Notes: generated by a model not told the origin, from the letters alone. A DNA stretch of 64,000 bases from Owenia fusiformis (GCA_903813345.2 CAIIXF020000001.1:18600001-18664000); one strand, 5' to 3'; shown: positions 3,910-61,739, counted from the stretch's first letter. Made by a program: numbers and translations.

Positions 3910-4062
3910 TCACTTAATTTTCTGTTGCCTTGGTAACCCTGCCGAGCTACATAGATTGGCAAGATTAGGAGGGGGTTGTAGTTTATTGAGTTCAGTTTTT
4001 AAGTTTTGTACAACTCTTTCTAATTTACTGCTTTTACTTCTTCGTACCCAGCCTTCCACTTC
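3910..4062 (-). CDS. Terminal coding exon ([10 protein letters not shown]...RQQKIK*)
   Basis: Acceptor ttctttgtcattgcag|GAA; TGA at 3912-3910; phase 0 matches the previous exon. Confidence 0.85.
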   Translation of the reverse strand, partial: EVEGWVRRSKSSKLERVVQNLKTELNKLQPPPNLANLCSSAGLPRQQKIK

Positions 4063-7000
4063 CTGCAATGACAAAGAACAAGTCTCTAATGAAAATGTTG
4101 TCAGTAATTCTGATCTGACAGTACAATATTTGTTTTGTCTTGTCATGATTTTGCTGATAAAATGAATGATTCATTACAGGTACTCATCAAAAAACTTTTG
4201 CATGGAACAGAGTGCACCTGTGTGTGCAAAAACACATGGCGTCCGTCCTGATATATTCACTAAAACTGATTATTGTACAGATATCCTCATTGATTCTTTT
4301 CTTTTACTACCTAATTTCATTCAATTTTGCACTTCAAAATACAATTGTTACAACTTACAACATACTATACAAAAACCTGAATCTTGATACTTACCTCAAG
4401 TATTCTGTCTTTTTTTAAGTAAAAATGTGATTTTATGACATCGGAGAAACCTTCGCTGGGATTCTGCAACTGATTTATCATTCCCCATTTTATTGTGTTT
4501 GTTCGCACATCTAAAAAAGAATTACTATACAATGAGTTTGGATTCAGTTTGGATCCTATTTAATTCCTAGTCTTTTCTGCACTAGGTTGTACAAGATAAT
4601 TTAGACAGTACTGTTTTTGTTTATAATCTTTATAAGTTTCTAAATAAAAGTTCTAAATAAAAATCATCTTAAACTTTTTATATGTTTTTGTTTTAATGTC
4701 TAAATATTTTCATTTAATTTTTATTTAAGACTGGACACTAGGGACTCTGGACCCCATGTTGCTACCATACTACCATAATAGCACAATAGTACAAAAAACA
4801 TCATAAATTATTTCTGTATCCAGTACACACACCTGCATTGTATTCAGCACTGTGTCTTTTGCCAGCATCTGTTCCTATTTCCTGCTCATAGCCAGGTTCA
4901 TTAAAGTAAGGCTCTGGCACAAGAATCAATGATTGTATGGACACTAGCACCTGAAACATTTCTCAACCGTTTCAAGTTTTCATACATGTCTTTTATTTAC
5001 TATCTTATATGTATGCACTTATATATGTAACTTTACAAGGGTCATCCAAAAAGTCTTGAAATTTTGCTCTAATCCAGAGTATTTTTATTAGAGAAGGGTC
5101 GGTTACGGTTCGGTTCGATTAACCGCGTTTTTTTGCCTCACGGTTCTACTGGGACCGTCTGATCACCAAGAACCGAGTCCAAAACGGTTCCATCATTCCC
5201 GGGGAAATACTTTATTTTCGTGCAGTGTAACATGAATACCAAATTTTTGCGCAAATAATTACAGCTCTATTTCATCTAAATAGCGAATGAAAGTACCATT
5301 TAAACGACAATTGAACAACTTTAAACGATCCATACGGTAATAAAATCGTTTCCTTGGATATTTCATTGTTCTTCCACGTCTCGATGGAACATAATTCTAC
5401 TTGCCAGCATGAATTTATTTCGCGCGGGAACACTTGTGTTTAACAAGAAAATGCAGCAAACTCCTCGAGTCGAGGTCTCCAAGTCAAAAAATGCCTGACC
5501 CTCTCATATATCTGTTGATTATCCTGTTTATAACTGATTCAAGAGCTTTGCACTGAACGAACCTATATGCCTATTTGTTATTTGTTTAGTTGTTGGTTGG
5601 GTAACATGTTTATGACGTCACAAATGATGCGAAGAATCTTTAAACCAATCAGTGAAGTCTGTATTAATTGTTTGTTTAGTTGTTGATGCTGTAATAAGTG
5701 TACGACGTAACAGGTGATTGCATCATATTCCAGCCACGCCATTTTACGACATTGCATAATTTTAGCTGATTTTGGCTTCATTTCACTTTATTTGAAAGAC
5801 TTTTAAAAATATAATAATGAGTCAGTATTTTTTCTTATAAATATTAATATTTGAATTTGAGGTCAAAGTCCGAAAATTTGATCAACTGATTGAAATCACA
5901 TTTTAAAGAGGTGAAGAAGTGAATAATTACAGGAGCAAACGTGATCAATGGTTTGAGGTCTCCCGCAAAGTAGTCGCTACGCTCCTACTTTGCGCTGCCT
6001 TCGGCAGAGGAGACCTCGAAAAAATGGCGGACAGTTTTCGAAGTCTTAGGCAAAGAGCTAGTAAAACCATAATAGAGCCTTTCCCCGCGATGCCTAAGTT
6101 GGATGCTTGGAAGTATTCGGTTTCTACGATGAGAATACGTCTACCCTATGTCGGTTGTGCAACACGACATTGAAATACGCTGCAGGTTTCCAATTTTTGT
6201 GATAGAAACTTTTTGTAAATTTTTTTAATTTTAAAAATTAAGACCGCGATCTTTATTAGACTTCAATTCATTCCCTATCTCGTAACTGCCTCCTATTACC
6301 CACTCATAGTAACATTTTTTATGACTGATATATACACTTTTTCATGTGTCCTACCTCAGGTCCCAAGTCAGGTTGAGAATTTGGGTAAACACCCCCTAGC
6401 CCACTGCACTGTTATTCCAAACTGAAGGACATCTGTGCTATCCATATAATTTTACTTTTCAGGAAAAACACTGTCTGCCGTGAGGAAACATATTGAAAGG
6501 TCTTACCCAACCATACCCAGTTTAGAAAGGAATCCCTCCCATCTAACACGGGGCAAGCAACTTGTTGATAGCCACATACAAATAGTTCAATTCTAGTTAT
6601 TTAATTCCATAAATATTCAATGATTATCAGCTATCATCATTCCATATTGATCATTTATAAGATTGAAAATAAAATTATATCCCCTAATAATACAAAATAA
6701 AAGTGAAACACCTTTTTATGTTGCCATATTTGTGGCACCAATTGCAATTTATGAGGCCCACCTTATTAAGTATATGATTTAAGAACCGACCGAACCGAGA
6801 GACAAGAACCGAGAATCATCCCGAACCGAACCGAACCGTGACCGACCCTTCTCTAATTTTTATGTCTATATTAGAATATCAAAAAAATCAAATTAAAATA
6901 AGATCTAAATAAGATATGATCACTTGGTTGTACATTTGTGAGTTACATGTAAATACAGCGCTTGCCTGTGTAGATGTGGTTACCTGTGGACATGTAGCTT

Positions 7001-10000
7001 ACCTGTTTGGATTATGATTGCAAATATAAGGTGACTTACCTGTAACAGTGTGGAGGTGATCTCATTCCAGGTCTCCCCCTGTTGACCCTCCCAAGTCCCT
7101 AGAAGTGACAAACACACTTTGCCACAGCTGCAACACAAATATGAAATAAATAACATAACATGCGTGAAAAACAGTATAGAATACATTCAAAAGGCCAATG
7201 TTTCCAAAGATAATATATGACCTATATCTGTATTAAAAATAATTCTTGCTTTTAACATATAACTGATAGCTTTAATCTGATCTATGCTACATAGGAGGTA
7301 ACTGGCTGAAGAAATATCAGAATATCTAAGTTTTGTGTTAAGTTAGTAACTGACATATCTTAAAAAATTATTATAGATATAACTTACTTGTATAAGTTAG
7401 GATTAAATCTCACTGTTCCACCACCAGTAGTCTACAACAGAACATTTGAAAATAATTAATGAAGATTGGTCAATGGATAATAAAATTGTCAATTACTTAT
7501 TGATCACCCCTTGTATTACCTTGAGCCACTTTGGCTGTTTCAAGGAAAGCTTATGATGCTTTTAACTGGAAATATTAGATAGGGTAGTAGTGAATGATGA
7601 ACATTTTGAAATCATAAATTCAAAATGGCAGCCACAAGTAGATTTTTTAATATCATTTTCTACAATTTACAAAAATATTCGGATAAACTACTAATTTTAA
7701 TGATCAAACATGAGTCAAGCCAATTAATGTTCAACTGCCATCTACAAATATATAAATAAATGAATTTCCTGCTCACCTGTAAGTTTACTAATGGAGGTGC
7801 CTTGGGATATGCAAAGGGGAAGAATATGTCAAATGTAAAACATCCCCCAGAGTATGGCGTTCCTTCTGGCCTGAAAATAGGTAGAAAAAAAAACTTTATG
7901 TTACGTCCAGATGAACATCCAGTGAGAATATCTACCGAATGTCAATGTATGTGTAGATCACAAATGCCATATTTACTCTGTGATGATGATCCTTATTACT
8001 AGCACTCCAATTATGACCTCTACTTGCCATGTGATCATGACCTCTTCTAAACCATTAATTATACCCATTCTTACAACATGTGATAATGTCCCCTTCTTAA
8101 CCTGTGATCATGGCCCCTGTTTCACTTTGATAATCGCCACTATTCTTCTGGGATTATGACCCAGTTTATCCAGTTTCTTATCATGATGTTCACTCTTATC
8201 ATGCTAATTGCTGCCTCTACTTATCAAATAATCATTTCCCATCATGAGATCATAGCCCCATTTTCCTGGGATTTAAATCCTAATTTCCCGGTGCTTTATA
8301 GCCCTTACTTACCCAGTGATCATGGCCTTCATGAGTGTGAGCTTGTCATCATCTGTGCGTACAAATATGGATGATGAGAGATCTATGGGTAATGATGTTG
8401 ACAGGGACGTTATCTCCTGTGCGATACGGAACACTTGAGACTGACTAGGTGTTGGGCTTTTCTTGAAATCTCCCAGATAATGATGAGCATTAGATCCTTC
8501 TGCTACAAAATATAAATATAAGATGCAAAATGTCACCACCTGCCATTTGTTAGAAACACCATTTGTTAACTCCTTAACGCCTGATCCTTAAAGTGGTTAA
8601 AATTGGTGAAATGTGCATTAAATATTAATTTAAATGCTTTTTATTCAATATTATACAAATATATGACTGTCATATATCAAAATGAAGAGAATTAGCCATG
8701 TTTCTCATTTTTACCTAATTTGCATAAATTATGCAAAAATAATGATGTCATAGTGACGTCACAAGGCTGAAATTGAGCATTTTATTTCATTAAATTGAGT
8801 CATATCTCTACAGTCAATACAGTTTTTCTCAAATACTGTTCAATTATTGCAATTTTGAAAAACATGGATTTGTTCTCCTTGATTTAAGCTTTAAAATGGT
8901 ATATTACATGATGGGTATAAGGAAGATTTGGTGTAACTAGATTATGTTAAAGTTTGCGATGCCAAGCCAAAAATTCCAGGAATCGTGGAAAATCTCAGAA
9001 AATTATGTCGAAATGTTTAATTGAAATATGTAATCTATAACAAATAAACTTTTAACTTGAATAATTTTTATTATATATTATAGGCCATACTAAGGGGGAT
9101 TGCTCATATACTGTTTTTGCCTAATTTGCATATACTGTAAAACGGGTAATTTTGACACCGGGAAATTTTAGCGATTTTTCAATTTTAGGGGGTTTTAGCG
9201 CGGGAAATTTTAGCGAAATGAAGATTAATCTTTAAAAAATCAAATTAGCGAAATGCATTAGAAATTGTATCATTTATGGCAGAAGAATCAATAACAGACA
9301 TGACAGAGGAATTATCAAAATGTAAGACTTCTAACGCACATGGTATTGGTCCAAACTACTGTTATCTCATCTGACTAATCACAAAATCACGGTAGCATTT
9401 AAAATCGTTGATTTTTCGGTCGAGCACTGAACGAAACGCTCCTTAAATACTAGTATTCTTGTTGTTTCCCGGGAATTTGCAAATTTTAGCGCCTGGTTTA
9501 TTTTAACCCCGGTTTATTTTAGCGAATTGAATTTTTAGCGAAACTATAGCGATCGCTAACAATCGCTAACAATTACCCCTCGCTAACAATACCCGTTTTA
9601 CAGTATTATGAAAATATAGCGATGTCATAAGATGACGCAAGAACGGTTTGTTCCGTCAACTAAATTCCATATTCAGGAATAAATAATTTTTATTACCCGA
9701 GATTCAGTTGATAAATGTTTAATAACCCAGTTCTGTTTCATAACAGCTTTAAAAATGATAAACTACATGAAGCATAGAAAAATAATATACTGTCACGACT
9801 CACTAGAATAAACCAGACGATCTGCGATAAGGTACTGATATTTGACAAATCGATGAAAATCATGACTCTACAATGTTTTGAAGAAATAATAGATGTATAA
9901 AGATGTGTTAAAAGCAAATTTCTGCTTGTGAATGTCTGTTTGTTCATGTACTCATTATGTTTGATTGCTAATAAACCAGATAGATCATGAACATGCAAGT

Positions 10001-13000
10001 AATCCTCAAACTGCTTGGCCTTCCATGGGTTTCCCCAACAAAGGCTTCTGATACACCCCCCCCCCTGAATCCCTATGCTCCCCCCTGAATTCCTATGCCC
10101 CCCTCCCTATACTACTCAACATTTTTCAAAATATATTTGTGTTGATTGTCCTACACACCTTGCAAGAAGATTTTAATGTGCCATGACATCTTACAGTAGC
10201 TATAAGAGTGAGGAAAGACGAAAAATAGTGAAAAAATAAAGTTTTTCACCTATTATCGCCCACTATAAAATCGGCCATAAAAATTAACAGAGTGAATTCA
10301 TCTGCCATTCAAGGTTTTGTAGGTGCATAAAGGTAGTAAAATTAACAATATAGTAACCCTTTACACCCTATATGTGTTTCAATTGGAAATATTGATGAAC
10401 TGATCTCACAAAGCATGGATATTGAGAAAATATTTTTAGATTGAAAATTGAATTTTTCTCAGAAATCGGGCCTTGATTGACTTGAATGAAAACGAACATA
10501 TTCTTACCTTTTTCATCAATCTAGCTCATCTTCTCTACGTTCGCTGATACCCCTAGGTATTATAATACTTGAAACTAGTTTCAGAAAGTGCATCTGTTGC
10601 CCCTAGATGGCTTGATATTTCAATAATTATATTTTAAATTTCGCGGTTCAGCCTCTTGGTCGAACCGGAAATCAATAATTTCAAAAATATTTAAATTTTT
10701 TCTTTTGCATTATTTTTTGGTCAATAACAACAAAATTGGTCAAAATAAGTGAACAAAGCAGTATTCTATGAATGTATTTATATTTATTCACAACTTTATA
10801 TAACAATTATAGGGAAATAGCGTGGAAAGATGCAATTATATTTTGGTAAGATTTTTCTTTATCAGGTGACGTCATAAACCCGTCAAATCGATCATATATG
10901 ATCGATTAGGCATGACGGAGTTAAGGACGCTATTTGATAGATGTAGACCGTGGAACGCCAACTTATGGTGGTGACATAAAAATCATAAAAAATAATCAAA
11001 ATCAGATAACAGCTGGTGTGTAGATACAATCATGTTTTTGATTTATTCATTATGATGGGTGTAGATTCTTCAAAGACTAATCACCAAAAGGTCATTCATT
11101 ATAAGCTTGGTGGAAAAAATCTGAAGGGCGTTCAGAACTGGGGCGAGTATGAGGAAAATCAATGTTTACCCTCAAATGCAAAGGTTTCCTGCTAAAATCA
11201 ACACATAATTCACATAAATATGTAGGGCAAGTGACATAGACTATAATAGTTCATTACTTACTTGATATTTCAACTGAGTCAAATAGCAGATCTTTCAGAG
11301 CCATTCTGTAGTTTGCTTCTAATTCGCTTAACTGAAATCATCAAAGTTTTTATTCAGGTGATTACTCAAATGATACGACATTTTACAATGACAGTTATAA
11401 ACTACTTTAAATATATAGTATTAAGCTGGATTATGAGGACATAGTATTATTGACAAGTCATTTACATGAATAGTAATTCCTTGTATGACTAATCTTACCT
11501 TATCTGCAGTGTTGTGTTTAAGAAGGGGAGTGCTGGACATGTCTGTATCACTGCTCTGACTGCTACTGCTACTGGAACTAAAGCTGTTCCCACTGCGCTT
11601 TATGGCACCTACATAATATATTCACAACATTGTATTTTTTCTATCTGCGCTTTATGGCACCTACATAATATATTAACAACATTGTATTCTTTCTATCTGC
11701 GCTTTATGGCACCTACATAATATATTCACAACATTGTATTCTTTCTATCTGCGCTTTATGGCACCTACATGATATATTCACAACATTGTATTCTTTCTAT
11801 ATGTGCTTTAAGGCACCTACATAATATATTCACAACATTGTATTCTTTCTATCTGCGCTTTATGGCACCTGCATAATATATTCACAACATTGTATTCTTT
11901 CTATCTGCGCTTTATGGCACCTACATAATATATTCTCTACATTGTATCTTTCTATCTGCGCTTTATGGCACCTACATAATACATTCACAACATTGTATTC
12001 TTTCTATCTGCGCTTTATGGCACCTGCTTAATATATTCACAACATTGTATTCTTTCTCTCTGCGTTTTATGGCACCTACATAATATATTCACTACATTGT
12101 ATTCTTTCTCTCTGCGTTTTATGGCACCTACATAATATATTCACAACATTGTATTCTTTCTATCTGCGCTTTATGGCACCTGCTTAATATATTCACAACA
12201 TTGTATTCTTTCTCTCTGCGTTTTATGGCACCTACATTATATATTCACAACATTGTATTCTTTCTATCTGCCTTTATGGCACCTACATAATATATTCACA
12301 ACATTGTATTCTTTCTATCTGCGCTTTATGGCACCTACATAATATATTCACAACATTGTATTCTTTCTATCTGCGCTTTATGGCACCTACATAATATATT
12401 CACAACATTGTATTCTTTCTATCTGCGCTTTATGGCACCTGCTTAATATATTCACAACATTGTATTCTTTCTCTCTGCGTTTTATGGCACCTACATAATA
12501 TATTCACTACATTGTATTCTTTCTCTCTGCGTTTTATGGCACCTACATAATATATTCACAACATTGTATTCTTTCTATCTGCGCTTTATGGCACCTGCTT
12601 AATATATTCACAACATTCTATTCTTTCTCTCTGCGTTTTATGGCACCTACATAACATATTCACAACATTGTATTCTTTCTATCTGCGCTTTATGGCACCT
12701 ACATAATATATTCACAACATTGTATTCTTTCTATCTGCGCTTTATGGCACCTACATGATATATTCACAACATTGTATTCTTTCTATATGCGCTTTAAGGC
12801 ACCTACATAATATATTCACAACATTGTATTCTTTCTATCTGCGCTTTATGGCACCTGCATAATATATTCACAACATTGTATTCTTTCTATCTGCGCTTTA
12901 TGGCACCTACATAATATATTCACTACATTGTATCTTTCTATCTGCACTTTATGGCACCTACATAATACATTCACAACATTGTATTCTTTCTATCTGCGCT

Positions 13001-16000
13001 TTATGGCACCTGCTTAATATATTCACAACATTGTATTCTTTCTCTCTGCGTTTTATGGCACCTACATAATATATTCACTACATTGTATTCTTTCTCTCTG
13101 CGTTTTATGGCACCTACATAATATATTCACAACATTGTATTCTTTCTATCTGCGCTTTATGGCACCTGCTTAATATATTCACAACATTGTATTCTTTCTC
13201 TCTGCGTTTTATGGCACCTACATTATATATTCACAACATTGTATTCTTTCTATCTGCCTTTATGGCACCTACATAATATATTCACAACATTGTATTCTTT
13301 CTATCTGCGCTTTATGGCACCTACATAATATATTCACAACATTGTATTCTTTCTATCTGCGCTTTATGGCACCTACATAATATATTCACAACATTGTATT
13401 CTTTCTATCTGCGCTTTATGGCACCTACATAATATATTCACAACATTGTATTCTTTCTATCTGCGCTTTATGCCACCTGCTTAATATATTCACAACATTG
13501 TATTCTTTCTCTCTGCGTTTTATGGCACCTACATAATATATTCACTACATTGTATTCTTTCTCTCTGCGTTTTATGGCACCTACATAATATATTCACAAC
13601 ATTGTATTCTTTCTATCTGCGCTTTATGGCACCTGCTTAATATATTCACAACATTCTATTCTTTCTCTCTGCGTTTTATGGCACCTACATAACATATTCA
13701 CAACATTGTATTCTTTCTATCTGCGCTTTATGGCACCTACATAATATATTCAGAACATTGTATTCTTTCTATCTGCACTTTATGGCACCTACATAATATA
13801 TTCACAACAGTGTATTCTTTCTATTTGCGCTTTATGGCACCTACATAATATATTCACAACATTGTATTCTTTCTATCTGCGCTTTATGGCACCTGCTTAA
13901 TATATTCACAACATTCTATTCTTTCTCTCTGCGTTTTATGGCACCTACATAATATATTCACAACATTGTATTCTTTCTATCTGCGCTTTATGGCACCTAC
14001 ATAATATATTCAGAACATTGTATTCTTTCTATCTGCGCTTTATGGCACCTACATAATATATTCACAACATTGTATTCTTTCTATCTGCGCTTTATGGCAC
14101 CTACATAATATATTCACAACATTGTATTCTTTCTATCTGCGCTTTATGGCACCTACATAATATATTCACAACATTGTATTCTTTCTATCTGCGCTTTATG
14201 GCACCTACATAATATATTCACAACATTGTATTCTTTCTATCTGCGCTTTATGCCACCTGCTTAATATATTCACAACATTGTATTCTTTCTCTCTGCGTTT
14301 TATGGCACCTACATAATATATTCACTACATTGTATTCTTTCTCTCTGCGTTTTATGGCACCTACATAATATATTCACAACATTGTATTCTTTCTATCTGC
14401 GCTTTATGGCACCTGCTTAATATATTCACAACATTCTATTCTTTCTCTCTGCGTTTTATGGCACCTACATAACATATTCACAACATTGTATTCTTTCTAT
14501 CTGCGCTTTATGGCACCTACATAATATATTCAGAACATTGTATTCTTTCTATCTGCACTTTATGGCACCTACATAATATATTCACAACAGTGTATTCTTT
14601 CTATTTGCGCTTTATGGCACCTACATAATATATTCACAACATTGTATTCTTTCTATCTGCGCTTTATGGCACCTGCTTAATATATTCACAACATTCTATT
14701 CTTTCTCTCTGCGTTTTATGGCACCTACATAATATATTCACAACATTGTATTCTTTCTATCTGCGCTTTATGGCACCTACATAATATATTCAGAACATTG
14801 TATTCTTTCTATCTGCGCTTTATGGCACCTACATAATATATTCACAACAGTGTATTCTTTCTATTTGGGCTTTATGGCACCTACATAATATATTCACAAC
14901 ATTGTATTTTTTCTATCTGCGCTTTTTGGCACCTACAAAATATATTCACAACATTGTATTCTTTCTATCTGCGCTTTATGGCACCTACATAATATATTCA
15001 GAACATTGTATTCTTTCTATCTGCGCTTTATGGCACCTACATAATATATTCACAACATTGTATTCTTTCTATCTGCGCTTTATGCCACCTGCTTAATATA
15101 TTCACAACATTGTATTCTTTCTCTCTGCGTTTTATGGCACCTACATAATATATTCACTACATTGTATTCTTTCTCTCTGCGTTTTATGGCACCTACATAA
15201 TATATTCACAACATTGTATTCTTTCTATCTGCGCTTTATGGCACCTGCTTAATATATTCACAACATTCTATTCTTTCTCTCTGCGTTTTATGGCACCTAC
15301 ATAACATATTCACAACATTGTATTCTTTCTATCTGCGCTTTATGGCACCTACATAATATATTCAGAACATTGTATTCTTTCTATCTGCACTTTATGGCAC
15401 CTACATAATATATTCACAACAGTGTATTCTTTCTATTTGCGCTTTATGGCACCTACATAATATATTCACAACATTGTATTCTTTCTATCTGCGCTTTATG
15501 GCACCTGCTTAATATATTCACAACATTCTATTCTTTCTCTCTGCGTTTTATGGCACCTACATAATATATTCACAACATTGTATTCTTTCTATCTGCGCTT
15601 TATGGCACCTACATAATATATTCAGAACATTGTATTCTTTCTATCTGCGCTTTATGGCACCTACATAATATATTCACAACATTGTATTCTTTCTATCTGC
15701 GCTTTATGGCACCTACATAATATATTCACAACATTGTATTCTTTCTATCTGCGCTTTATGGCACCTACATAATATATTCACAACATTGTATTCTTTCTAT
15801 CTGCGCTTTATGGCACCTACATAATATATTCACAACATTGTATTCTTTCTATCTGCGCTTTATGCCACCTGCTTAATATATTCACAACATTGTATTCTTT
15901 CTCTCTGCGTTTTATGGCACCTACATAATATATTCACTACATTGTATTCTTTCTCTCTGCGTTTTATGGCACCTACATAATATATTCACAACATTGTATT

Positions 16001-19000
16001 CTTTCTATCTGCGCTTTATGGCACCTGCTTAATATATTCACAACATTCTATTCTTTCTCTCTGCGTTTTATGGCACCTACATAACATATTCACAACATTG
16101 TATTCTTTCTATCTGCGCTTTATGGCACCTACATAATATATTCAGAACATTGTATTCTTTCTATCTGCACTTTATGGCACCTACATAATATATTCACAAC
16201 AGTGTATTCTTTCTATTTGCGCTTTATGGCACCTACATAATATATTCACAACATTGTATTCTTTCTATCTGCGCTTTATGGCACCTGCTTAATATATTCA
16301 CAACATTCTATTCTTTCTCTCTGCGTTTTATGGCACCTACATAATATATTCACAACATTGTATTCTTTCTATCTGCGCTTTATGGCACCTACATAATATA
16401 TTCAGAACATTGTATTCTTTCTATCTGCGCTTTATGGCACCTACATAATATATTCACAACAGTGTATTCTTTCTATTTGGGCTTTATGGCACCTACATAA
16501 TATATTCACAACATTGTATTTTTTCTATCTGCGCTTTTTGGCACCTACAAAATATATTCACAACATTGTATTCTTTCTATTTGCGCTTTATGGCACCTAC
16601 ATAATATATTCAGAACATTGTATTCTTTCTATCTGCGCTTTATGGCACCTACATAATATATTCACAACATTGTATTCTTTCTATCTGCGCTTTATGGCAC
16701 CTACATAATACATTCACAACATTGTATTCTTTCTATCTGCGCTTTATGGCACCTACATAATATATTCACAACATTGTATTCTTTCTATCTGCGCTTTATG
16801 GCACCTACATAATACATTCACAACATTGTATTCTTTCTATCTGCGCTTTATGGCACCTACATAATATATTCACAACATTGTATTCTTTCTATCTGCGCTT
16901 TATGGCACCTACATAATACATTCACAACATTGTATTCTTTCTATCTGTGCTTTATGGCACCTACATAATATATTCACAACATCCGCTATGTATTTTTCTA
17001 TTTTCATCAAATCAAAGTAAATCAATTTCTGAACAGACCAAGAACTGACCAAGAACTAGTAAAGGGTATTATGAAACAATGTTGATATACTAAATTAAAT
17101 AAAAGAATTGAACAATGTGTAAAGATTCACTGAGAGATCGAAGAGAAAACTGTTTATACTTTTGTGTTTTTAATTTTAACATGTAAAATTGAAACAAATA
17201 TTATGTTTGACCAGGAAAGTTGACCAGGATGATCCATTAAACAATGCCAAACAGTTGATTAATTTGTAAGGGATAATACATATACATGTACATCGACCCA
17301 AAAGGTTTGAAGGAAGAAATAATGAAAGTACTCACCAGTGACATCTTGGAACAGGTTAACAAACTCTCTGAAAACAAAGCAAATGTTAAATGTTTAAGTT
17401 TTTAAGTTGAAGCAAAACAATGTACAAACTTCACATGGGCTGTTTTTATATTTTTTCATGATTTACAATTTACAACAATTGCGAATCATTTAGACATTTA
17501 AAATCATTTAACATGTATCCATCATGTAAATTGCAGATTGGCAATACTTTCGCATGTACATGTACATGCTGAGTTGTTAAAATCAAGTTGACATAGAATC
17601 CCTTAAATCTCAATTAGCTCAAATGGATGCAAGTTTTTTTAACTCATGCATCAATTGCAAGTGGATTCCATCTACAAGACCATGGGGTACAAGAAAGAAT
17701 ATGAGGACTTGCACCCCTAAGAGGTTGTATTTTACATTTACTTCTGGTCCACTTAGCGAGATCAATAGTGCAAGAAAACAGGCAGATAGTTCATTCATGG
17801 AACGAAGCATGAAACTTTCCACATATCATCAGAATACCATTCCCTTTGATTTAAGAGCCAGAGCCATTTTCATGGTCCACTAGAATGGTCAAAAAATAGT
17901 AAGTACCCCCTCCCACCAAATCCTATGGGGGTGGGGAGATATAGGAATATTTTTTTCATAAAAAAATTTCTTTGAATATGGTCATACTACAGTTTTAGTG
18001 TGCTATTTTCATGGTAAAGAAATTTTGCAAACATAACAAGATGATTTATCATTGATTTCCATCACTGTTAAAGACTAATCATGGGCGACGCCCACTTTTC
18101 ATACCTTGAACATTGAGGTTATTAAATCTCTATCATTGGTTTAACAAATGAATGTAATTCAGTTTTCTGGATAACACCAGATACCTTTTTGATGTTAGGT
18201 GCTATAGTTAATCTTAGCATTTGACTTTTTAAAGGCTTACACCATATCACAACCCTGTTTAGAAGAAGAAAGCAAGCAACAAATGTCCCAGATCTACAAC
18301 ATGTATCCACTATTCTATGTACATGTATGTCGAGTCTCTATTTTTTCCTGAAGAGAACCTATGCTACAGATACAACTTTCTAGAATTTAGATGATGATGT
18401 GCTTAAACAGTTTGATGAATGGTGTGCTGACCCATTGCCTAAACAGTTTGATGAATGCCGTGCTGACCAACAGAATGTACCAGTACCAGTGAAAATTTAG
18501 GCTATTAAACCTCTTTCATGGTTTGAACCGGAACCAGAAAAGCCGCCACAGTCACAGCCTGCAGTCTCTAAATTCTCAAGAGAGCCTATACTACATACAC
18601 AGCTGTCCAGAATCTAGATAATGAAGTGATAAAAGTTTGATGAATGGTGTGCTGACCACCAGAATGTACCAGTCTTTAAGTTTTGGTTTCAGATTATTTG
18701 AATCAAAATACTGTGCCTGAACTAAGTGTGGGCTATCAGAGAGGGAAATTTCCCTCTTTCACACTACCCTACCACGTGACCACGTTTAAAAGGGAAACAG
18801 GGTACAGCTAAGTTGCAAATGGAGGACGTGTGTTTAATTCCATATTTCTGAACGTAAAATACATTTTACATTTATTTCTAGTGTTCTACCAGACATAGAA
18901 TTGATTCATCAACCAGTTTGTAGAATATTGTTGGCAAAAAATCATTATAGGCAAAGATAGTTAATAGTCGGCGCAGTGAAGCAAAACTCAAATGCAATAC

Positions 19001-28000: not shown

Positions 28001-31000
28001 CTGGACCTTGACTTGGACCTGGACCTGGAAATGGACTGGACTGGTATTTTTTCAATCTTTTCTTCACTTCTCTTGACTTTCTATAAGGCTATCATCAGAT
28101 CGATTTTTCTCGAAATTTAAAAATCAGCAATTTCTCGATACCGTGCGAACTTGGGAAATGGCGATGTTAGGTCAAATAGACATTATGGATATACATAAAA
28201 TGAATGTGGAAATGACTCAATAGTGCTGTCCCTAGGTCTGATTTCGTTACTCGGCTCGGAAAAAAGGTTTGTGGGTATCATTTTGTTCCAGACACTCTCT
28301 AGAATAAATTCATCTTGGGTGGAGTAAAAATGTGTGGTAAACGAATTTGCTATGGGCAGTTAAAGAGGCGCCATCTATTCATTTTCAAACAGGGGGTAGA
28401 GGTATAAAATAATTTTTTAACACATTTTAATAGTAAAATGACATTGAAATACTAATAAAATCTTATCAAAAACATTATTTACAATCAGTATGAATTTTCT
28501 TGTGTGGATTAGGGTGAAAATAAGGGCATATCTTGAAATTCACTAAAGGGGCGCCACCTATTTTGGTACTTCTACCACGTGTAATAACTTATTTGAGATT
28601 CGTTAAGGTACGAAATGTACTGAAAAAATTCATTCTGAAGTGCCTATATATGTTCATACCACATACTTAAAATTAGATCAATAGCTTATGTACCGGCGAA
28701 GAAAAAAATTATTGAAATTTAAAATTGTGGTATCATGCAGGATAGGGGTGACCATATGTCACCTTAATAACTTCCAAAATATTGAGCATATGTATCTCAA
28801 ATGTGCTCAAAATGGTGTATGTACTCTTGCTTTGTCATAATATTAGTAATAAGAAGTAGAAAAATGATTGTACATTTTAGAAATTATTAATTCTCATTTT
28901 GGCTTCTGACGTCCCAGGGGTGACCATATCTCACCTTTATAACTTCCAAAATATGGAGCATATGTATCTCAAATGTGGTCAAAATGGTGTATGTACTCTT
29001 GCTGTGTCATAATATTAGTAATAAGAAGTAAGAAAATGATTGTACATTTAAAAAAATATTAATTCTCATTTTGGCTTCTGATGTCCCAGGGGTGACCATA
29101 TGTCACCTTAATAACTTCCAAAATATTGAGCATATGTATCTCAAATGTGCTCAAAATGGTGTATGTACTCTTGCTTTGTCATAATATTAGTAATAAGAAG
29201 TAGAAAAATGATTGTACATTTTAGAAATAATTGATTCTCATTTTGGCTTCTGAAGTCCCAGGGGTGACCATATCTCACCTTAATAACTTCCAAAATATGG
29301 AGCATATGTATCTCAAATATACTCAAAATGGTGTATGTACTCTTGCTTTGTCATAATATTATACTAATAAGATGTAGGAATATGATTATACATTTAAAAA
29401 TTTAAATTTTAGCTTCTTACGTTCCTGGGTAATCATATCGCAACATATAATGATAATAATAACTTCTAAGATATGTAACATATACGCCTCAAATATTCTC
29501 AGAAAAGTCTTGTCTTTCATATTACTAATGAAATGTAGAAAAATGATTGCATTTTTTTTTAAATTTTGATTTTAGCCTCTGGTGTCCCACCTTGATAACT
29601 CTCACGATATGCAACTTATGCATCTCAAATGTGTGCTCAAAATGGTATAAATATAGTCTTGTTTTGTCATATTTATTTAGAATCATAAAATCAACAGTTC
29701 AGAATCAATGGATTTTGACTGTCTCCTCTACAGCTACATATAATTCAGGGCAAATAATATCTGCTTTCAAATATTTGCATCTGCTCCCCAAACACCCCTT
29801 ACAGGTACAATGGATGAGATTATTCCCTTGCATAACTTGGACCAAACATCTTTTGTAATCCATACAGGAATCCTTTTAGCCTATCAATAGTGGGAGTACT
29901 TTACTCCATTTATGAAGTAATGACAAATGTTGATAAGGTGTTAATATGTTATCCTGTGGCCTGCAATATATGCACCTTGGATCATACACTGAATTAGGGG
30001 ATTTTGAGTACGTAAAATACGGGAAAAGGAGCTCTTTGTAATGATAAATCTTTCTAGCCATATTCTCTTGTTTTCATGTTTGTCATACAACATACATTGA
30101 TTGTATTGAAATATTAATTTATGATTGTGACGTCCCGCACTTCTTGGGTCCCAGAGAAGAGCTTAGCTTTTGGAACACTTGCATTACTCTTGGCATGATA
30201 GGCCATACAGTGAATACAATTGTTGAGATGGGGCAAGAACAATATAGCACATTCGACAAAAGGCAACTTGAAAACCTAACAGTACCATTTGATAGAACCA
30301 TATCCAGGAGCAAAGTTCTTCAGTTTATTAGGCCTCCAAAACCTCCATTCATTACAGATTATGGAAAACTATAGTTCTGAATGACCATGCCAAAAATTAG
30401 ATCATTAACATGCTAAAACCCAACAGTGAAAATATGCAGAACATGAACATAAATGATTGTGCAAATTAAGTAATATTTCTTCCCCACATATAAAACATAG
30501 AAATGGAACAAGGGAGAAGGTATATCATACTAATTCTCTTGTAAATTTCCTAAGATGTGCCAAGAACAAGAGTGATCTGTTTTCCTTCCAGACATCAAAA
30601 CTTTATGCTAAAAAAACTGAAAGTGTCAATTTGGATTGCATACTGAAAGAGGAAATCTTATCAGTATCTCCCTTCCCATGTTATTATTGCAGAATATGGC
30701 CATGGCAAAACTTTAGCCCTTTCCTTATGCAATCATTGCATGTGATGCCATATCTGCATTCTAATACTGTTCTAAATCATCCGATTTCCGATCTGGATTT
30801 CTTCTGATACATGTACCATAGAATGAGACATTGCAGTTATAAAGTCATTTGTAATTCTGATATATGACAAAACATGCAAACGAGAGAATGTCAATCGGGA
30901 TTAGAAGTGACTTATCGCCCTTGTAATTTAGCAGTGGGACAGTTTGGTGTATGTTTGGGCATAAATGCGCCTTTAAGGCCTAATTTTTCAGGATATTTTC

Positions 31001-34000
31001 AAAATTTCGGGGGTTAAGGGGCCAATTTTGGTAAAAGAGGCTAGGCTACTCACACTACTGATAGGCTACCAGTATACAAAAGATGTTGCATCCAAGGCAT
31101 GCAAAAGACTTATCGTCCATTGTTCCTGTAATATAAGGAGTGTTTGGGGAGAAGATGCAAATATTTGAAAGTAGATCTTATTGTCTCTGGGCTATATGTA
31201 GCTGCATCCTTCAGGGGAGACAGTCAAATCCATAAATTCTGAACTTCTGATTTTATGAATCTCAATAAATATGACAAAACAAGACTATATTTATACCATT
31301 TTGGGCACACATATGAGATGCATATGTTGCATACTGTGAGAGTTATATCAAGGTGAGATATAGTTGCCCCTGGGATGTCAGATTCGGAAGCTAAAATGAA
31401 AATTTCAATTCAAAAAAGGTGTAATAATTTTTTCTACATCTCATGAATAATATTATGACAAAGCAAGACCATATGCCCCATTTTTGGTATATTTGAGTTG
31501 TATATGTTACATAATTTTAGAAGTTATTGAGGGACCTCAGAAGCTAAAATTAAAATTAAAATTTTTTAAATGTATAATCATATTCCTACATCTTATTTAA
31601 GTATAATATTATGACAAAGCAAGAGTACATACACCATTTTGAGTACCTTTGAGATACATATGCTCCATATTTTGGAAGTTATTAAGGTGAGATATGGTCA
31701 CACCTGGGACGTCAGAAGCCAAAATGAGAATTAATAATTTCTAAAATCTACAATCATTTTTCTACTTCTTATTACTAATATTATGACAAAGCAAGAGTAC
31801 ATACACCATTTTGAGCACATTTGAGATACATATGCTCAATATTTTGGAAGTTATTAAGGTGACATATGGTCACCCCTGGGACGTCAGACGCCAAAATGAG
31901 AATTAATATTTTTTTAAATGTACAATCATTTTCTTACTTCTTATTACTAATATTATGACAAAGCAAGAGTACATACACCATTTTGACCACATTTGAGATA
32001 CATATGCTCCATATTTTGGAAGTTATAAAGGTGAGATTTGGTCACCCCTGGGACGTCAGAAGCCAAAATGAGAATTAATAATTTCTAAAATGTATAATCA
32101 TTTTTCTACTTCTTATTAGTAATATTATGCGAAGCAAGAGTACATACAACATTTTGAGCACATTTGAGATACATATGCTCCATATTTTGGAAGTTAATAA
32201 TGTGAGATATGGTCACCCCTATCCTGCATGATACCACAATTTTAAATTTCAATAATTTTTTTCTCCGCCGGTACATAAGCTATTGACCTAATTTTAAGTA
32301 TGTGGTATGAACATATATAGGGCCTTCAGAATGAATTTTTTCAGTACATTTCGTACCTTAACGAATCTAAAATAAGTTATTACACGTGGTAGAAGTACCA
32401 AAATAGGTGGCGCCCCGGTAGTGAATTTCAAGATATGCCCTTATTTTCACCCTAATCCACACAAGAAAATTCATACTGATTGTAAATAATGTTTTTGATA
32501 AGATTTTATTAGTATTTCAATGTCATTTTACTATTAAAATGTGTTAAAAAATTATTTTATACCCCTACACCCTGTTTGAAAATGAATAGATGGCGCCTCT
32601 TTAACTGTCCATAGCAAATTCGTTTACCACACATTTTTACTCCACCCAAGATGAATTTATTCTAGAGAGTGTCTGGAACAAAATGATACCCACAAACCTT
32701 TTTTCCGAGCCGAGTAACGAAATCAGACCTAGGGACAGCACTACAATCCGAATAGCAGTTTTAATTTGTGCAGCCAATGTTGACAGACGGACGGACCAAC
32801 GGATGGACGGACGGACCAACTGACGGACGCCTGGTTGATCCCATAGGATCACTGTGTGAGCCAAAAACTATGGTTTTATCGCTAATACTGTTAATTTGAA
32901 AAAAGGGTCCATAACATGTAATGATGACAATGAAAATGTTGAAATTAGGTACGCCAATGAAGTGAATTCAGAGCAAAAGACCCATCGACCCACTGGAATA
33001 CCCACAAATCAAGTTTCATAGCCTTGCCCAAGTTGGTCTCTTTTACTTATCTTGATTTCTATTATGACCGCCCTGTACCCAAGAGAAAGCCACGTGCTTT
33101 ACCAACCCAGTGTTTTTGTTGGTAAAATTTGACAAATCAACAACGGCCCTACATTGCCGGACTAGGTCGTCATGCATTTCCATCCCGAATTCAGTTTTGA
33201 TTTTGAATCAACATTGAATTGCATGGTTTCATTTAGACGAGTATTAATGACTGCTTACATTCCAATGTACATTTAATAACATAATATATTGTAACTCTAA
33301 AGAAACACTCGATCAGATCATTGAATTTCAAGTCCTAGACGGGTAGTTTGCTTTTTTAATGCAGGTCAACCTGATAACGTTTTGATTGGTCAATCAGCCT
33401 GAAGTCACACGTTGTGTCCATGTCCATATTGTCAATCAATATGGTTTTGCGATACCCTTAGGTAGCCTAGGTATTATGGGAATCTCGGAACCGCTGAATA
33501 ACTTAGCATAATATCAGCGATGATACATTGGATTGTACAAGGTGGTAATAATTCAAGATCAGATAAGTAAATAAATACCGACTTGGGCAAGGCTACAAGT
33601 TTCAGAGCCATTAACATTCCTTGAAAGTGACAATGAGCAGCCAACAGATGTACCATCCGTAAATCTTGATGATTTTGTCAGCTCATCTGAACGAGCCTCC
33701 AGATTCCTTGAAACAAATGACCATAATTCAAGAATAATATTATCCATTTACAATTTTTTGAAATCGTGGTAAGTGGAATCTTTCCAATTACCAATATAGC
33801 ATTATCATTGTTTTTGGACACTGTGGACTAAAATATTAAAAATACACACATTCAAAATGATTCAATTGAAACCTAGCCAGTCTGTTCAATGAATCCAATC
33901 AGAACGTCTACTAATCCACATGATACATCATAATTAGATTGCTTTTTTAAAGTGGATATTTCATACCATAACCCCAAAAATATTATAGAATGCATTGTAT

Positions 34001-37000: not shown

Positions 37001-40000
37001 GGCAGATAGTACTACATGTACTTGGCCCATATTATTAACCAATAAGATGTCTGCAAAGTTTGAAAAAAAAATTTCTAAGTAAAAACTTACCAACTTCTTT
37101 GATGATATCAACAATGACTTTATATACCTTGAAATAAAAAGAATCACACATGTATACATTGTTAATTAGAACAAACCATTCCAAACATGTATACATACTA
37201 CCATCTTCACAGGTATCAACAGGCTACTCAGAATAAGGACGGAATTTTAGGTGCATTGGCTTAGTTCTCTAAGACCCATAAATGTATTATTTATAGAATT
37301 CTGAATGATGCAAATGCAGCTGTTTATAAAGAAGGAATTTGATACTTTATGAGCCTTACAACATTTCCTTCACCATATTATTTTGCTCATCATTGTGCCT
37401 GCTATTTTGTAGTACTGTATAGATAGTTGACATATAGATAGCCTGGGGGCTGTATAAGGAAATAGGAAAGCAACTGAAATCATACAGGGTGGGCCAAAAG
37501 AAAGGCCTGGTGTAATTTTAGCCTCTAACTCCACAAGACAACAACGGTTTTTCAATTGGATGCTGTCATATTGTTAGAAAATGATTATCTTTAAAATGAT
37601 ATGATAATAATACATGGCATGATTAATACACATCATATCACTATGATATTCATCTTTAAACTTGGGTACTGGCTTTTTTGGCCTAACCTGTATTATCAAT
37701 GAAAATGAATTAAATTAATCAATTATGCTGTTCAATTCTTATTTGGGTGGTTCAATATCAAATATTCTTATTAGGTATAACATCACCTAAAATGCACTTA
37801 TTGTTCTAGTTAGAAAATATACAATATTGAATTAATATTGATCTGATGATGATACTTACAGCTGTGTGCCTGCAAATCTCTAGAAATGAATCTGCTTTTA
37901 AATATTGCTGAAAAATGAAACATTTCATATTTACGATATTAGAATTTTTTTGTTAGATTTGAACTATTGAATATAAAATAGTTTGGAAATCATATTTGAC
38001 CGTATAACAAGTTTTATTACAGCCTAATAAATTAACCTGTTAACTGATATAATCCTTAAGTGAGTCAACCCCCCTCTTGATTACTACTGATTTGTGAACA
38101 ATGTAGTTCCACAAAAGATCATAATTTGAAAGTCGTCACACTATGACATATGCCTGTTTCAATGAATATATTAACAGATTTATAGCTGTTATGTAACAAC
38201 ATTAACTGACCATTGTTATTAAAAACAATAATATTCTCACACAATGGTCACCTCATTGCTTACCTCTAAGAAGGGGACAAGGGCTGAACCCTCTAATATA
38301 TTATACATGTCTTCAACTGGGTCAACACACTCAGGTCTACTAGCTGCAGCAGAGGCAAGCTTCCTGGGCTTCAACTGTGGGGCATGGTTGGCATATAACA
38401 CTTTAAGCTCTTGTTGGATCTTGTGTAACACATCTTCTACCTGTAAATGTGCATTTGTTACTTTACAATTTCAACAAGATACTCGTGCCCTTAAATCGGT
38501 GTTAAACACCAAGACATGAACATAACAAAAATAGGGGTACCTTAAAAATTGTTTTTTTACATTATCAAGTACATTTTCTTTATAGGCTATAGCAAGGGAT
38601 TTAATTTTGTGTTTTCATCGCCTTATTACATTGGTGTGTCTGAGAGACTAATCAATACCTGTTTATCTTTCTCTCTCTGTGCAGCAAGATATGCCTTTAC
38701 ATCCCACTCGGGCCTTCTGCTATGCCCATAGCCAACTCCCTTGGCCCAGTACTCAGGCTCATCTTTCCTCCTCTTTAAATCCTGTACAATGGACAAAGAA
38801 ATTAATTTATAAGTCTTCTTATCAGCCATTAATAATGAACTTCATACTAGGTTGGTACCATGTTAAATCACAATTTGTAAACAAGTTGAAACTTCCTATT
38901 GGTTCTTTGGTGACCTTAAAAAATGACTTTAAAGAATTGCTCTTTTCTTTAAATAAATTTTTATTTACCTTTGGATTTGTAACTGAGTCTTCATTCTGAG
39001 TGTAAGATTTCTCATCATCATGCATGGATGCATTTTCATGTCTAGCAGGCCTCAGCTCTGGGGGCTTCTCAACATCAATGTGGTACTTTATGTTAGCTCT
39101 TGGGTTTACTTCACTTACCTAGAGAAGTAAAATATGGGAATTGACAACCGTAATTTGGGTGGGGTGGTCTGGGGTATCCATTACAGCTGTACACTAAATG
39201 ATTAAAGGCATCAGAGCCTCAAGGTGGTAATCTTTTTTCTGCTATACATACAGAAATACATTTTTGCAATTTGGTATAGAATTAGGTATGGCAATGGCTA
39301 AATAACAATATAATAATAATAATATAATAGAAACTTTTTCTGATTTTCTCAAATAAATTAAGGAAATTTGTTTAACAAAGATTGACATTGCATATACATG
39401 TAGTTTAGTAGATAGCTTGGTCATCATCAGTGAGAAACCTTGCCAGATATTATTTTTATTTAAGAGGCTGAAACTGCAATGAGTACGAACTGAGTCTATT
39501 CTTCACAGAATACATTATATTAAAGTACATGTATATAACTTACCAAGGCCAGCCGCAGTAAGTGGTGCTCAATCTCCACATAAGACCCTGTTGGAAATCT
39601 CTTCGGATCATTCCGTTCGCTGTTTACTTCTAACCTACAATATTTGTCACACATGATAAGAGGGATAATATCAATCATCCATCAGTTTTCTACGTTTTAT
39701 TTCAAGCTTTCACTTCTGGTGATTGATATTCAACTGACTGTCCCTTAAGAGGAGGACATCATTAAATCAAATTAATCCTGAAATTGTCAAGTTATTCTAC
39801 AAATAAAGGCTGAAAGGATGGAATTATCACTTGTTTCCAAGTAAAATTCACTGATTATTGTCCAACGAACTATCTTAACTGCTTCATATAATACTTTATT
39901 CCATTGTTTACATTTTCCAAGGTTTAATAAATCAAGACCACATTTTACTGCTTTGCTGACATCATTATCACTTCCAGCACATTACATCAGGGGATTTTTG

Positions 40001-43000
40001 ATGACATCATCAGAAGCTAAGGGGAATCCCAAATCAAGCTTCTGAAACTCAAATTTTCTATCTAATGAGAAAGAGGAGGGAAAATCCCAGGGTTCAGAGA
40101 AGACACAAGGGGGAAATCTCCCAAAGTTCAGCCTTTGTATTCTGTCACGTGGTACCCACGTGCTAGATCCATATAAGGATTATAGGACCATATAGAAATC
40201 CAACTTACTATTGCCGCCATTTTAAATATCATGTGATAGATACATATATGGCTTGTATGACCATACGGTAAAGCTAAGGGAAATCCCCTAATACGAAAGA
40301 ATATGATAGTATTATGGGGGCTACTCATTCTGAAGACATATGTCTATAATGTAAATGTGCATTGAGAAGACATTGTTTGATTGATCAAATCTACAGACAA
40401 ATGACATCATTCAATGGCGATTTCAGAATTTTGTAAAACGCTTTGAATAATATTTTATTCATTTCTGGCATGTTAACCAATACCATAGGTTGTTATTTCA
40501 CATCAAGATAAAGAACGATGTAAGGAATATGCTAACATTGATTAAAACATCACAACAACGTTTGGTTTTCGGAAACTAGCAGGTGAAAACTTGGACAAAC
40601 GAAGGTGGTAAGCAAGATATGTCGTTTGTGGATGTGGTTTTCCCTCCTCTTCTAATGAGATAAAGTCAACAGAATATATTTTCTACCTGGCCCATTGTTG
40701 TAGGAAATTCTTTATATCTGAGAGAACTCCCTTCATGTCCTTGGCTGGATTCCAGTAAGATAGTTTCAACATCTCCATATTGGTAACCCTCTGCATCATA
40801 GAACCCTGGAACAAAATACATGCAATCAATTTTTTCTCATTTTGAATTGAATACAAAAGCATAAACAAGAAAATGAGATATTCAGAAGTGCATTGGTTCC
40901 ACAATGAAAATATAAGTTTTAAGCATCTAAATACAGTAAAATGTTGGGTCTAGTAATATGGTATAATAAAAACTTGATCTTGTCATACTTAGATTTGTAA
41001 CAGAATTGGCTGATGAAGACTCACTCAGTGGGCAAATAAGCAGTTATCTCCCATGCACCAAAGCAAAATTGTACATTACATATAAAAAATGGTGTCCCAA
41101 AGTGTTTCTTGCAAAACCATGCAGCTGCAGTGTAAACAGTGAATATTAGCAGTGAGTTGGATGTATACACATGTATTAGCATGTGAGTGGAACATACACA
41201 AGGCCTTGTGCAAGACTAAATCATGATAGCACAAAATGCTGAGAGCAACACACAAGGATAGATTATGAAAAATATATCATCATGACTGCAAAAATGCTTA
41301 TCACAATATGATGTAAATGCCAATCACAATATAACTTCATTCAGTGGTTTTGCAAATAAAAAGACTTGAATTACTGGCCACAATCACAAAAGAGTCATAA
41401 TATATCATTTACTGTGCAACGGACTTCAGCAAATCAAAATTGATACTTAGACACAAAATGATTTTTTCATAAAGCCTTTAAGCCACCCATTCATCACTCA
41501 AGAATCATCAATTCATAACTCAAGAATCATCAATTCATAAGTCAATTATCATCAATTCATAACTCAAGAATGATAAATTCATAACTCAAGAATCATCAAT
41601 TCATACCTCAAGAATCATCAATTCATAACTCAAGAATGATAAATTCATAACTCAAGAATCATCAATTTATAACTCAAGAATCATCAAGTCATAACTCAAT
41701 TATCATCAATTCATAACTCAAGAATGATAAATTCATAAGTCAAGAATCATCAATTCATAATTCAAGAATCATCAATTCATAACTCAAGAATCATCAATTC
41801 ATAACTCAAGAATCATCAATTCATAACTCAAGAATCATCAATTTATAACTCAAGAATCATCAATTCATAACTCAATTATCATCAATTCATAACTCAAGAA
41901 TGATAAATTCATAACTCAAGAATCATAAATTCATAACTCAAGAATCATCAATTCAAAACTAAAGAATCGTCAATTCATAACTCAAGAATCATCAATTTAT
42001 AACTCAACTATCATCAATTCATAACTCAAGAATGATCAATTAATAACTCAAGAATCATCAATTCATAACTCAATTATCATCAATTCATAACTCAAGAATC
42101 ATTGATTCATTAATCAGCTATATAAATATCCAAACCTTCAAGTGATCAATATCCTGTCCATGTTGCAATGTGATAAGTTTTAAATCAGAAAAGACCACAT
42201 GCAGTATGGCAAGTGATTTAAGATGGTCATATCTTTCACCATGAGTACTTTCTGGGCATAAATACAGTGGTTTTTATTAAAACAATATGTTTTCTTTCAA
42301 ATGAAGTACCCATGATGATAAAAATATAAATCAAACAATTCAAAAAATAATGAATAGGGACCCCATGTCAACATTTTTTTCAAAATATTAAACCTATTTC
42401 CTCAAAAGAGGATCTTCTTTTTCTGATTTTTATTGCATGAAAACATTATTCAACAAGGGGTCTAAGACATGTTCAAAAATAGAATGGTATTGAAAGTCTC
42501 GTTTTGAAGATATCAATTTTCGATCATGCTGAAAACAATGGATAGTACGAGTTTTCCCTATGGGAAAATAACATGGGATATGTGTTTTTTAACTTTAACT
42601 CATTTCAATACCCATCCCCGTTTCAGAAATTGTTAATATAGTGTAGAGGAGACTTTCGATATGTTTAAATTGAGAAAAACAAGATCCTCTTTTCAGAAAA
42701 TAAGCCTAACATTTTTCAAAAAGTGCCAAGGTGGGGCCCTAATCCCTAATTTGTCAGAGAGTTGAATTGATATTTTACTATCATGGGGACTTCATTTGAA
42801 AGAAAACATATTGTTTTAATAAAAGCCACTGTATTTATGGCCAGAAAGTACTCATGGTGAAAGATATGACTGTCTAAAATCACTTGCCATACTGCACGTG
42901 GTCTTTTATGCAATTCACACTCTGATTATTATGTTTTTGCAAATACCATGTAAATCATATCAGATTGGGTTGGATATAAAGTAGGACATGATCAATCTCT

Positions 43001-53775: not shown

Positions 53776-54137
53776 TACCCTGCATGCAGAGTCTAGTAAT
53801 AAACTACCCTCTGCCTAGCATAGACTATATTACAGTTTAGTAGCCCCCCCCCCCCCCCCACCAACCACCTTTCCCCATGACAGTCTGTGCCATAAATCAT
53901 TTCAAACCTACAATGTTGATCTTTTCTCAATCAAGCAGAGAGCTAGAAGGAACACATACTAAATGCGCGCTCATTAACTATGCAATGATATCAGAGGAAA
54001 TGACCATATATAGAAAGTTGTCCATATTTCGAAGACGAACTCTGAATAGCTTGGCGTGTTCAGAGATTTATTGTAAACTGAAAGAGTGGAGTCGAAGCTC
54101 TCTTTTAAGAAGCGAAGTCGAACAAATCCAAAGGATA
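53776..54137 (+). mobile_element. 362-bp member of the TACCCT...AGGGTA family (duplicate at 60272-60628)
   Basis: 9-bp TSD GTGAGCTCT on both sides; ends shared with the 84-bp element at 24890. Confidence 0.85.
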
Positions 54138-60700: not shown

Positions 60701-60746
60701 GATAAGGACCACATTGTAACATTATATGACAAAATAAAAACATGTA

Positions 60747-61066
60747 CAGTGCTCACCATAAATAAATGACACCAGAATTTGCTAAGGTGAGGATTTCCCA
60801 TGTGAAAAAGAAGAGAATTTACAAGAGGGTTGAGGGGTTGGCTTGACCAGGCCAAGGGTAGTGACTAGAGGAGGTGATTTTGCTAAATAGGGCTGTAGGT
60901 TTTGCTTGACCAGGCCAAGGGTAGTGACTAGAGGAGGTGATTTTGCTAGATAGGGCTGTGGGTTTTGCTTGACAGGTCAAGGATAGTGGCTAGAGGAGGT
61001 GACTAAAATCTCCATTGTCTTGAAATGGTGATAGAAAATCCAGGTGTCATTTATTTATGGTGAGCA
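60747..61066. mobile_element. Tc1/mariner-type MITE carrying inverted units of the 62-bp satellite
   Basis: TA|CAGTGCTCACCATAAATAAATGACACC ... GGTGTCATTTATTTATGGTGAGCA; right tip missing; absent from duplication copy 1. Confidence 0.75.
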
Positions 61067-61660: not shown

Positions 61661-61739
61661 TACCCTTTGCATTCGTTTGACTTCACTTCTTAAAAGAGAG
61701 CTTCGTCTTGTATTTTAACTAGACTCTGCACGCAGGGTA
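61661..61739 (-). mobile_element. 79-bp micro-element, TACCCT...AGGGTA family
   Basis: Perfect 9-bp TSD CATTGTGTC; the paralogous site near 54860 is empty. Confidence 0.9.

Follow-up and report, generated by a model that had tools for sequence, protein, structure and literature searches.

The repeat array and its host gene

The window analysed here, a 64,000-nt stretch of the genome of the annelid Owenia fusiformis (GCA_903813345.2, CAIIXF020000001.1:18600001-18664000; positions count from its first letter), carries on its minus strand a ubiquitin-conjugating gene in which one coding exon is preceded by about a hundred copies of its own 3' splice site. The copies form one tandem array at 11593-16982, for which Tandem Repeats Finder (TRF) gave a period of 52, 103.7 copies and 94% matches, and on the minus strand the array holds 104 AG|GTG(C/G)C sites from 16960 down to 11608. 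A real array of 52-bp units, proposed with about 100 copies in a preliminary description of the sequence, is thereby confirmed, with 104 acceptor-like sites. Each unit comprises the last 36 nt of the intron and the opening 16 nt of the exon at 11499-11608, and only the last unit continues into the open exon.

The exon in question (minus strand, 110 nt, phase 1 to 0) has the last repeat copy as its acceptor and is closed by a strong donor, AAG|GTAAGA, at 11493-11498. Upstream of the array lie 375 nt of unique intron (16961-17335, delimited by comparison with the unit) and a 32-nt exon with the donor CTG|GTGAGT (17336-17367), itself behind an 18.8-kb intron. Downstream follow a 70-nt exon (11262-11331) and seven exons encoding the C-terminal BIRC6-like UBC domain (3910-8502, from tblastn and Pfam), all on the minus strand. 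These assignments were made by tblastn with a protein found by using one downstream exon as query, which returned five relatives among 37 candidates. The best was 100% identical (P0001, 967 aa, source name Owenia fusiformis); it is a database model, possibly derived from this assembly, and does not count as independent evidence. Its residues 102-967 map to 25 exons from 48392 to 3910, including 17367-17336 (residues 630-641), 11608-11499 (residues 641-677) and 11331-11262 (residues 678-700), while residues 1-101 gave no tblastn match within the window. A DV..A.KR.G pattern spanning the junction of 17336 with 11608 is kept in three other lophotrochozoan proteins (P0002-P0004), which supports both the acceptor at 11608 and its frame.

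In the C-terminal half, residues 398-926 matched BIRC6 (E 2e-98), and Pfam placed a UQ_con domain at 727-881 with the cysteine of a KVCLS motif at 815. Residues ~200-335, encoded by exons on the minus strand at 39544-44697, aligned with UBE2Q1 (E 3e-8), and there Asn300 stands opposite the Cys of GAICMELL, which we take to be the catalytic residue. As judged from these alignments, the gene is predicted to encode a BIRC6-like ubiquitin-conjugating enzyme with a UBE2Q-like pseudo-E2, in line with the earlier picture of a pseudo-E2 combined with an active UBC domain. The protein encoded at 3910-48392 would thus comprise the pseudo-E2, a BIRC6-like middle and the UBC domain; Pfam found no BIR domains in it, and its relatives, with 62-65% identity, occur in annelids and a chiton.

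Structure and origin of the array

The 103 full units are 51-52 nt long and fall into 23 variants, with a mean of 1.7 differences from the consensus; AG|GTG is kept in 104 of 104 sites, and 79 units carry a weak donor-like AT|GTAGGT or a variant of it at +48. Setting aside the genuine site at 11608, the array contains 103 decoy acceptors (11660-16960, minus strand, one per unit), near-identical to the real one, and every one leads to an in-frame stop within 37 codons, upstream of the UBC domain. The stop follows six residues, mostly the GAIKRR foreseen from the consensus, in 76 decoys, and 9, 12, 34 or 37 residues in the other 27 (9, 2, 9 and 7 decoys, respectively). The truncated product, residues 1-641, would keep the pseudo-E2 as anticipated, yet it would also retain part of the BIRC6-like middle and so would not consist of the pseudo-E2 only. 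The exon body is richer in G+C than the unit (47% vs 33%).

A DNA search of the species' own genome, with one candidate region scored, placed the unit at no other locus, all 41 matches lying inside the array; a dispersed element or satellite family is ruled out by this result. Higher-order blocks of 15/16, 31 and 19 units were recognized: a run of 29 units is repeated 31 units further on, with sub-blocks of 15/16 units and one block of 19. Such nesting is as expected of recent unequal exchange, and the array is shown to be single-locus, young and built in blocks. The 3' end of the unique intron aligns with the intronic part of the unit apart from 6 extra nt and 1 nt fewer. This alignment suggests 16960, the first site, as the ancestral acceptor, lying 375 nt from the upstream donor in the older intron context, and the acceptor now in use as a derived copy whose upstream context is wholly repeat. 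The array would have started from a short tandem duplication over the acceptor (~41 nt of intron and 16 nt of exon), followed by a 6-nt loss in a copy and amplification by unequal exchange, and an intron of 375 nt would so have grown to 5.7 kb. Variant types falling on AG|GT numbered 0 of 26 vs 2.0 expected (P = 0.12), and there is no sign that selection has either retained or purged the splice signals of the array.

Transcripts of the exon

Positions 8200-11700, which include about two units of the array, were compared with raw reads from three stranded RNA runs, of which 6-12% per run were used, and with one contig set (X1). The exon is transcribed from the minus (sense) strand only, and intronic RNA depth is near zero. 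Summed over the three runs, 75 reads (29, 16 and 30) cover the exon at 11580, with 70 at 11275 in the next exon and 67 at 8405; 51 reads join 11499 to 11331 and 63 join 11262 to 8502 (P = 0.30 for equality). The inclusion of exon 11499-11608 in transcripts, assumed in the preliminary description, is borne out, and no skipping of one or both exons was seen at these depths and joints in the three runs. The claim that the exon cannot be skipped in frame holds for the exon by itself (110 nt, phase 1 to 0) and fails for its joint skipping with the 70-nt exon, which removes 180 nt and is in frame. The gene is shown to make normally spliced RNA that includes the 110-nt exon.

At 11637, in the nearest decoy unit, four reads were found (2, 2 and 0), each with the consensus letter and 3-4 other differences. 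Since any RNA spliced to a decoy, whichever the unit, should pile up at this position, stable decoy products amount to at most 4 of 79 (~5%; 95% limit 12%). From the mean depth of the last bin, reads internal to the array imply exon-edge depths of 27.5 and 14.3, vs 29 and 16 at 11580, and landing on a decoy implies 32-34 and 19-21; by this arithmetic, which gives no direct view, the four reads fit best as array-internal. In steady-state RNA, with the upstream junction outside the stretch compared, it is the authentic, exon-adjacent copy that is used. The earlier proposal that copy number tunes nonsense-mediated decay (NMD) or a truncated isoform finds no backing in four decoy-unit reads against 75 in the exon and in equal depths along the three exons, although steady-state RNA cannot reveal products that NMD has destroyed.

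X1 is DNA-like, its contigs passing through introns and showing no exon joints. The repeat is represented in it by one contig of ~78 nt, for which one difference is listed; its depth, which is not a copy number, is 49.6, against 3.7-12.2 for single-copy neighbours. From the assembled array one would instead expect 71 unitigs, with lengths of 31-36 nt for those of high copy. This is a hint that other animals may carry an array that is shorter or more uniform.

Two observations concern the acceptor of the 190-nt exon that begins at 8502. The site (8499-8502) is a TAG-CAG tandem, at which all 63 listed joints fall on 8502. Just before it, a 40-nt intronic stretch (8519-8561) was matched by partial RNA reads in their thousands and by contigs of very great depth, often joined to 10961; the stretch is the end of a very abundant dispersed element (transposon).

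Choice of the acceptor

Splice sites were scored with crude matrices built from the gene's own 23-24 introns. The acceptor at 11608 scores 2.0 bits with a matrix from the other 23 introns, and 20 decoys score higher (two of them 7.8 bits), 55 equal and 28 lower. Acceptor strength thus fails to distinguish the genuine site, 75 of 103 decoys scoring at least as well. A better acceptor private to the last unit was likewise rejected: its -20..+3 segment is identical to that of 55 decoys, and two internal units share the only variant of the last unit, a lost AG at -29. The masking of decoys by RNA structure was rejected too: in predictions for 37 and 15 °C the real acceptor proved no more open than many of them, 18-45 of the 103 being at least as accessible. 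Four units together fold somewhat better than shuffled sequences (z -2.5) by way of a near-palindrome, but the exon-side stretch shows no such excess (z +0.8). An alternative acceptor inside the exon was also rejected, since only 11542 among the AGs from 11608 to the donor is in frame, its score of 0.4 is below that of the real site, and depth is already full at 11580.

The donor differs plainly from anything within the array. The site at 11498, among the strongest of the gene, reaches 10.5 bits and ranks with the best 0.1% of 1024 intronic GT sites, against 4.5 and -1.6 bits for the donor-like sites of the unit. Exon definition with the donor at 11498, put forward in the preliminary description, is accordingly the best explanation of the choice. 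Donor proximity or enhancers in the exon body presumably must drive it, and the 32-nt upstream exon behind an 18.8-kb intron suggests that exon definition operates in this gene.

Comparison with known repeats

The array has the make-up of the mirage minisatellites described from amphioxus: its units lie head-to-tail across an intron-exon border of the host gene, and 52 bp falls within the 10-160 bp given for mirage units (PMC3087553). As outlined in the amphioxus reports, mirages occur in Adh3, the globins BflGb6 and BflGb9, troponin C and PGBD5, most units retain AG/GT signals, and splicing is normal (PMC3087553, PMC3902484). Like them, the Owenia array consists of minisatellite-like tandem copies of an intron 3' end and an exon 5' start, and the exclusion of end units from homogenisation is reported as a shared trait; unlike them, it has an annelid host, higher-order blocks and ~104 copies (3-6 in BflGb6). 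Length instability is shown for amphioxus mirages and only hinted at in Owenia. A literature search that covered few subscription journals found only the amphioxus reports relevant to mirages (PMC3087553, PMC3902484), and a search of the same scope on Owenia fusiformis had nothing on this repeat among the 15 of 545 matches listed.

Human genes offer partial parallels. The CBS allele c.844_845ins68, described as a duplication of 52 intronic and 16 exonic nt, strongly favours the downstream copy (PMC2630376, PMC7490669) and is reported to splice normally (PMC2630376); in contrast to the Owenia array it has one extra copy rather than ~100, and a few bases differ between its copies. In the 37-bp variable number tandem repeat (VNTR) of F7 intron 7, identical splice sites likewise stand in tandem and only the exon-adjacent copy is used, pseudo-sites functioning once the real site was removed in the minigene tests described (PMC1557585); that repeat, however, lies on the donor side and has 5-9 copies. 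The polyubiquitin gene UBC shares tandem AG|GT sites one unit apart, but its sites are described as acting as donor and acceptor inside coding repeats (PMC10809524), whereas the Owenia array is intronic and its GT side scores as a non-donor. Tolerated repeats of this type are already known in lancelets and humans, and the array seems to be a large case of one.

Similar arrays elsewhere in the genome

Four pre-selected loci on the same contig all proved to be acceptor arrays (56 bp x 121, 49 x 9, 88 x 37 and ~75 x 13); Pfam matched the exons of three of them to Aldedh (E 0.0015, below its cut-off), GT64 and a homeodomain. Sampled blind, 80 pieces of 10 kb at even spacing (0.8 Mb) contained 49 arrays. 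With a crude predictor of exons (sensitivity 5-14 of 23 by leave-one-out), an exon edge fell in the terminal unit of 9, 3, 3 and 2 of the 49 arrays at four settings, loosest first, where random seeds gave 4.3, 2.0, 1.2 and 0.6 (P 0.03, 0.32, 0.13 and 0.13). One of these arrays (L088:3914-4733, from G000:C1:57380001+; 93 bp x 8.8) copies the acceptor and the start of an exon that encodes the P-loop of a myosin head (Pfam E 3e-12). Another likely case is L026:7033-8659, where adjacent related arrays (49 bp x 15 and 52 bp x 15) end in a 12-bit acceptor and an open exon; this exon had no Pfam match, and we take its peptide to resemble TAF2. Two other candidates from the blind sample, when scanned, gave no Pfam match.

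Four further arrays (L080:2553-3150, L073:5329-5632, L089:7277-7872 and L012:8294-8869) stop ~3-35 nt short of a likely acceptor and are copies of an intron 3' end that lack the AG, which may mean that arrays favour intron ends. When the terminal unit was widened by 40 nt, 3-7 acceptor-side cases were counted vs 0.6-5.0 expected and 3-10 donor-side cases vs 0.6-4.4; this test was designed after seeing the data and serves as a lead only. A modest bias of array birth toward exon edges is possible, the evidence being suggestive and not established, and chance may be explanation enough where minisatellites arise often. For the host gene, a 52-bp seed set at random has a chance of ~2-3% of covering an acceptor. 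One to two arrays per 0.8 Mb extrapolates to hundreds in a 500-Mb genome, if the contig is typical.

Weighing the explanations

We give roughly three chances in four to the reading that the array is a tolerated mirage minisatellite resolved by exon definition, with no dosage dial and no regulatory role needed. The spliceosome would choose the last copy because that copy alone leads into the unique body of the exon, with a strong donor after 110 nt, and each decoy would face only more repeat downstream. Rare wrong landings would meet a premature stop and be removed by NMD. Several points weigh against this reading. The 17336-to-11608 junction itself is unseen, the examined stretch having been without the upstream exon, and landings at 11608 and 11660 were judged by depth; RNA depth is low, at 6-12% of each run; and the animals sampled for RNA differ from the assembly at many single-nucleotide polymorphisms and may carry a shorter array. 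Decoys 1-3 would yield exons of 162-266 nt, which are normal sizes, and the nearest decoy outscores the real site with 3.6 bits, so that exon size alone leaves the choice unexplained. The six-base GTAGGT/GTGC stretch has 1 variant type vs 3.0 expected, a weak post hoc hint of constraint.

The array might instead be leaky, with sizeable landing on decoys, destruction of the products by NMD and less enzyme from longer alleles. Every one of the 103 decoys leads to a premature stop that many introns follow, three quarters of them score no worse than the real site and two far better, NMD would conceal the products, and the ~78-nt contig of X1, with its one difference unlike the variant-rich assembled array, hints at length variation between animals. 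NMD targets, however, are usually lowered and not abolished, and no more than 4 of 79 reads lie on the decoy unit although all units collapse there. The same architecture also recurs in unrelated genes, so a gene-specific device fits less well than a mutational by-product, and published mirages are reported as leaving splicing undisturbed (PMC3087553). We regard such a dosage effect as unlikely. About equally doubtful is the joint proposition that array length could set enzyme dose through NMD-hidden landings while minisatellites arise preferentially at exon edges across the genome.

Two further explanations are more improbable still. The large near-perfect blocks, and a depth of the X1 repeat far under a hundredfold of its neighbours (a depth that gives no copy number), would suit a short real repeat over-expanded to 5.4 kb during assembly. 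The 23 variants, however, are arranged in nested blocks whose counts of plain units vary, a pattern resembling stepwise unequal exchange; reads from two of the RNA runs, like X1, contain repeat units, and other such arrays on the contig reach 37-121 copies, which leaves a partial artefact little room. Hardly more credible is a ratchet or dual-specific form of splicing, in which landing on a decoy recreates an exon end followed by GT that is recut to a later copy until the array is removed stepwise, or in which 48-nt pseudo-exons (acceptor to AT|GTAGGT) are spliced in. AG|GT is present in every unit, re-splicing would yield exactly the correct mRNA, 7 of the 79 pseudo-exons that could form keep the frame and contain no stop, and the tandem AGGT sites of human polyubiquitin UBC are described as being so used (PMC10809524). 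Against this, the regenerated donor CTG|GTGCCA scores -1.1 bits (the GTGCCA of the units about -1.1 to -1.6), below all 24 real donors of the gene and equalled by 48% of random intronic GT sites; an active donor of this kind would also cleave the mature mRNA, in which the exon nevertheless stands at full depth, and pseudo-exon reads would fall on 11637, where only the four reads lie.

Other features of the window

Near-identical translated stretches at ~52000-55500 and 58500-62500 suggest a duplicated or transposon-derived block of several kb. Inside the 18.8-kb intron, two 172-bp arrays at 28744-29402 and 31531-32220 lie in apparently opposite orientation and are perhaps the ends of a foldback-type element. 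Other minisatellites, at 41489-42110, 46643-47427 and 50835-52064 (22, 39/79 and 62-64 bp), touch no mapped exon of the host gene.

Implications

Read as a tolerated mirage, the array extends this repeat type to an annelid ubiquitin-conjugating gene, with a copy number far above that of the published cases compared. It also provides a natural test of acceptor choice: the first decoy stands at the old distance of 375 nt and in the old context, and stable RNA nevertheless enters the last copy, which matches exon definition and not scanning for the first AG from the upstream donor. Should copy number affect expression, the array would amount to a dosage allele, hidden from short-read genotyping within an intron. 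A bias of array birth toward exon edges, if true, would point to a mutational process linked to splicing or transcription, and hundreds of such arrays, if they exist, would form a natural panel for the study of 3' splice-site choice.

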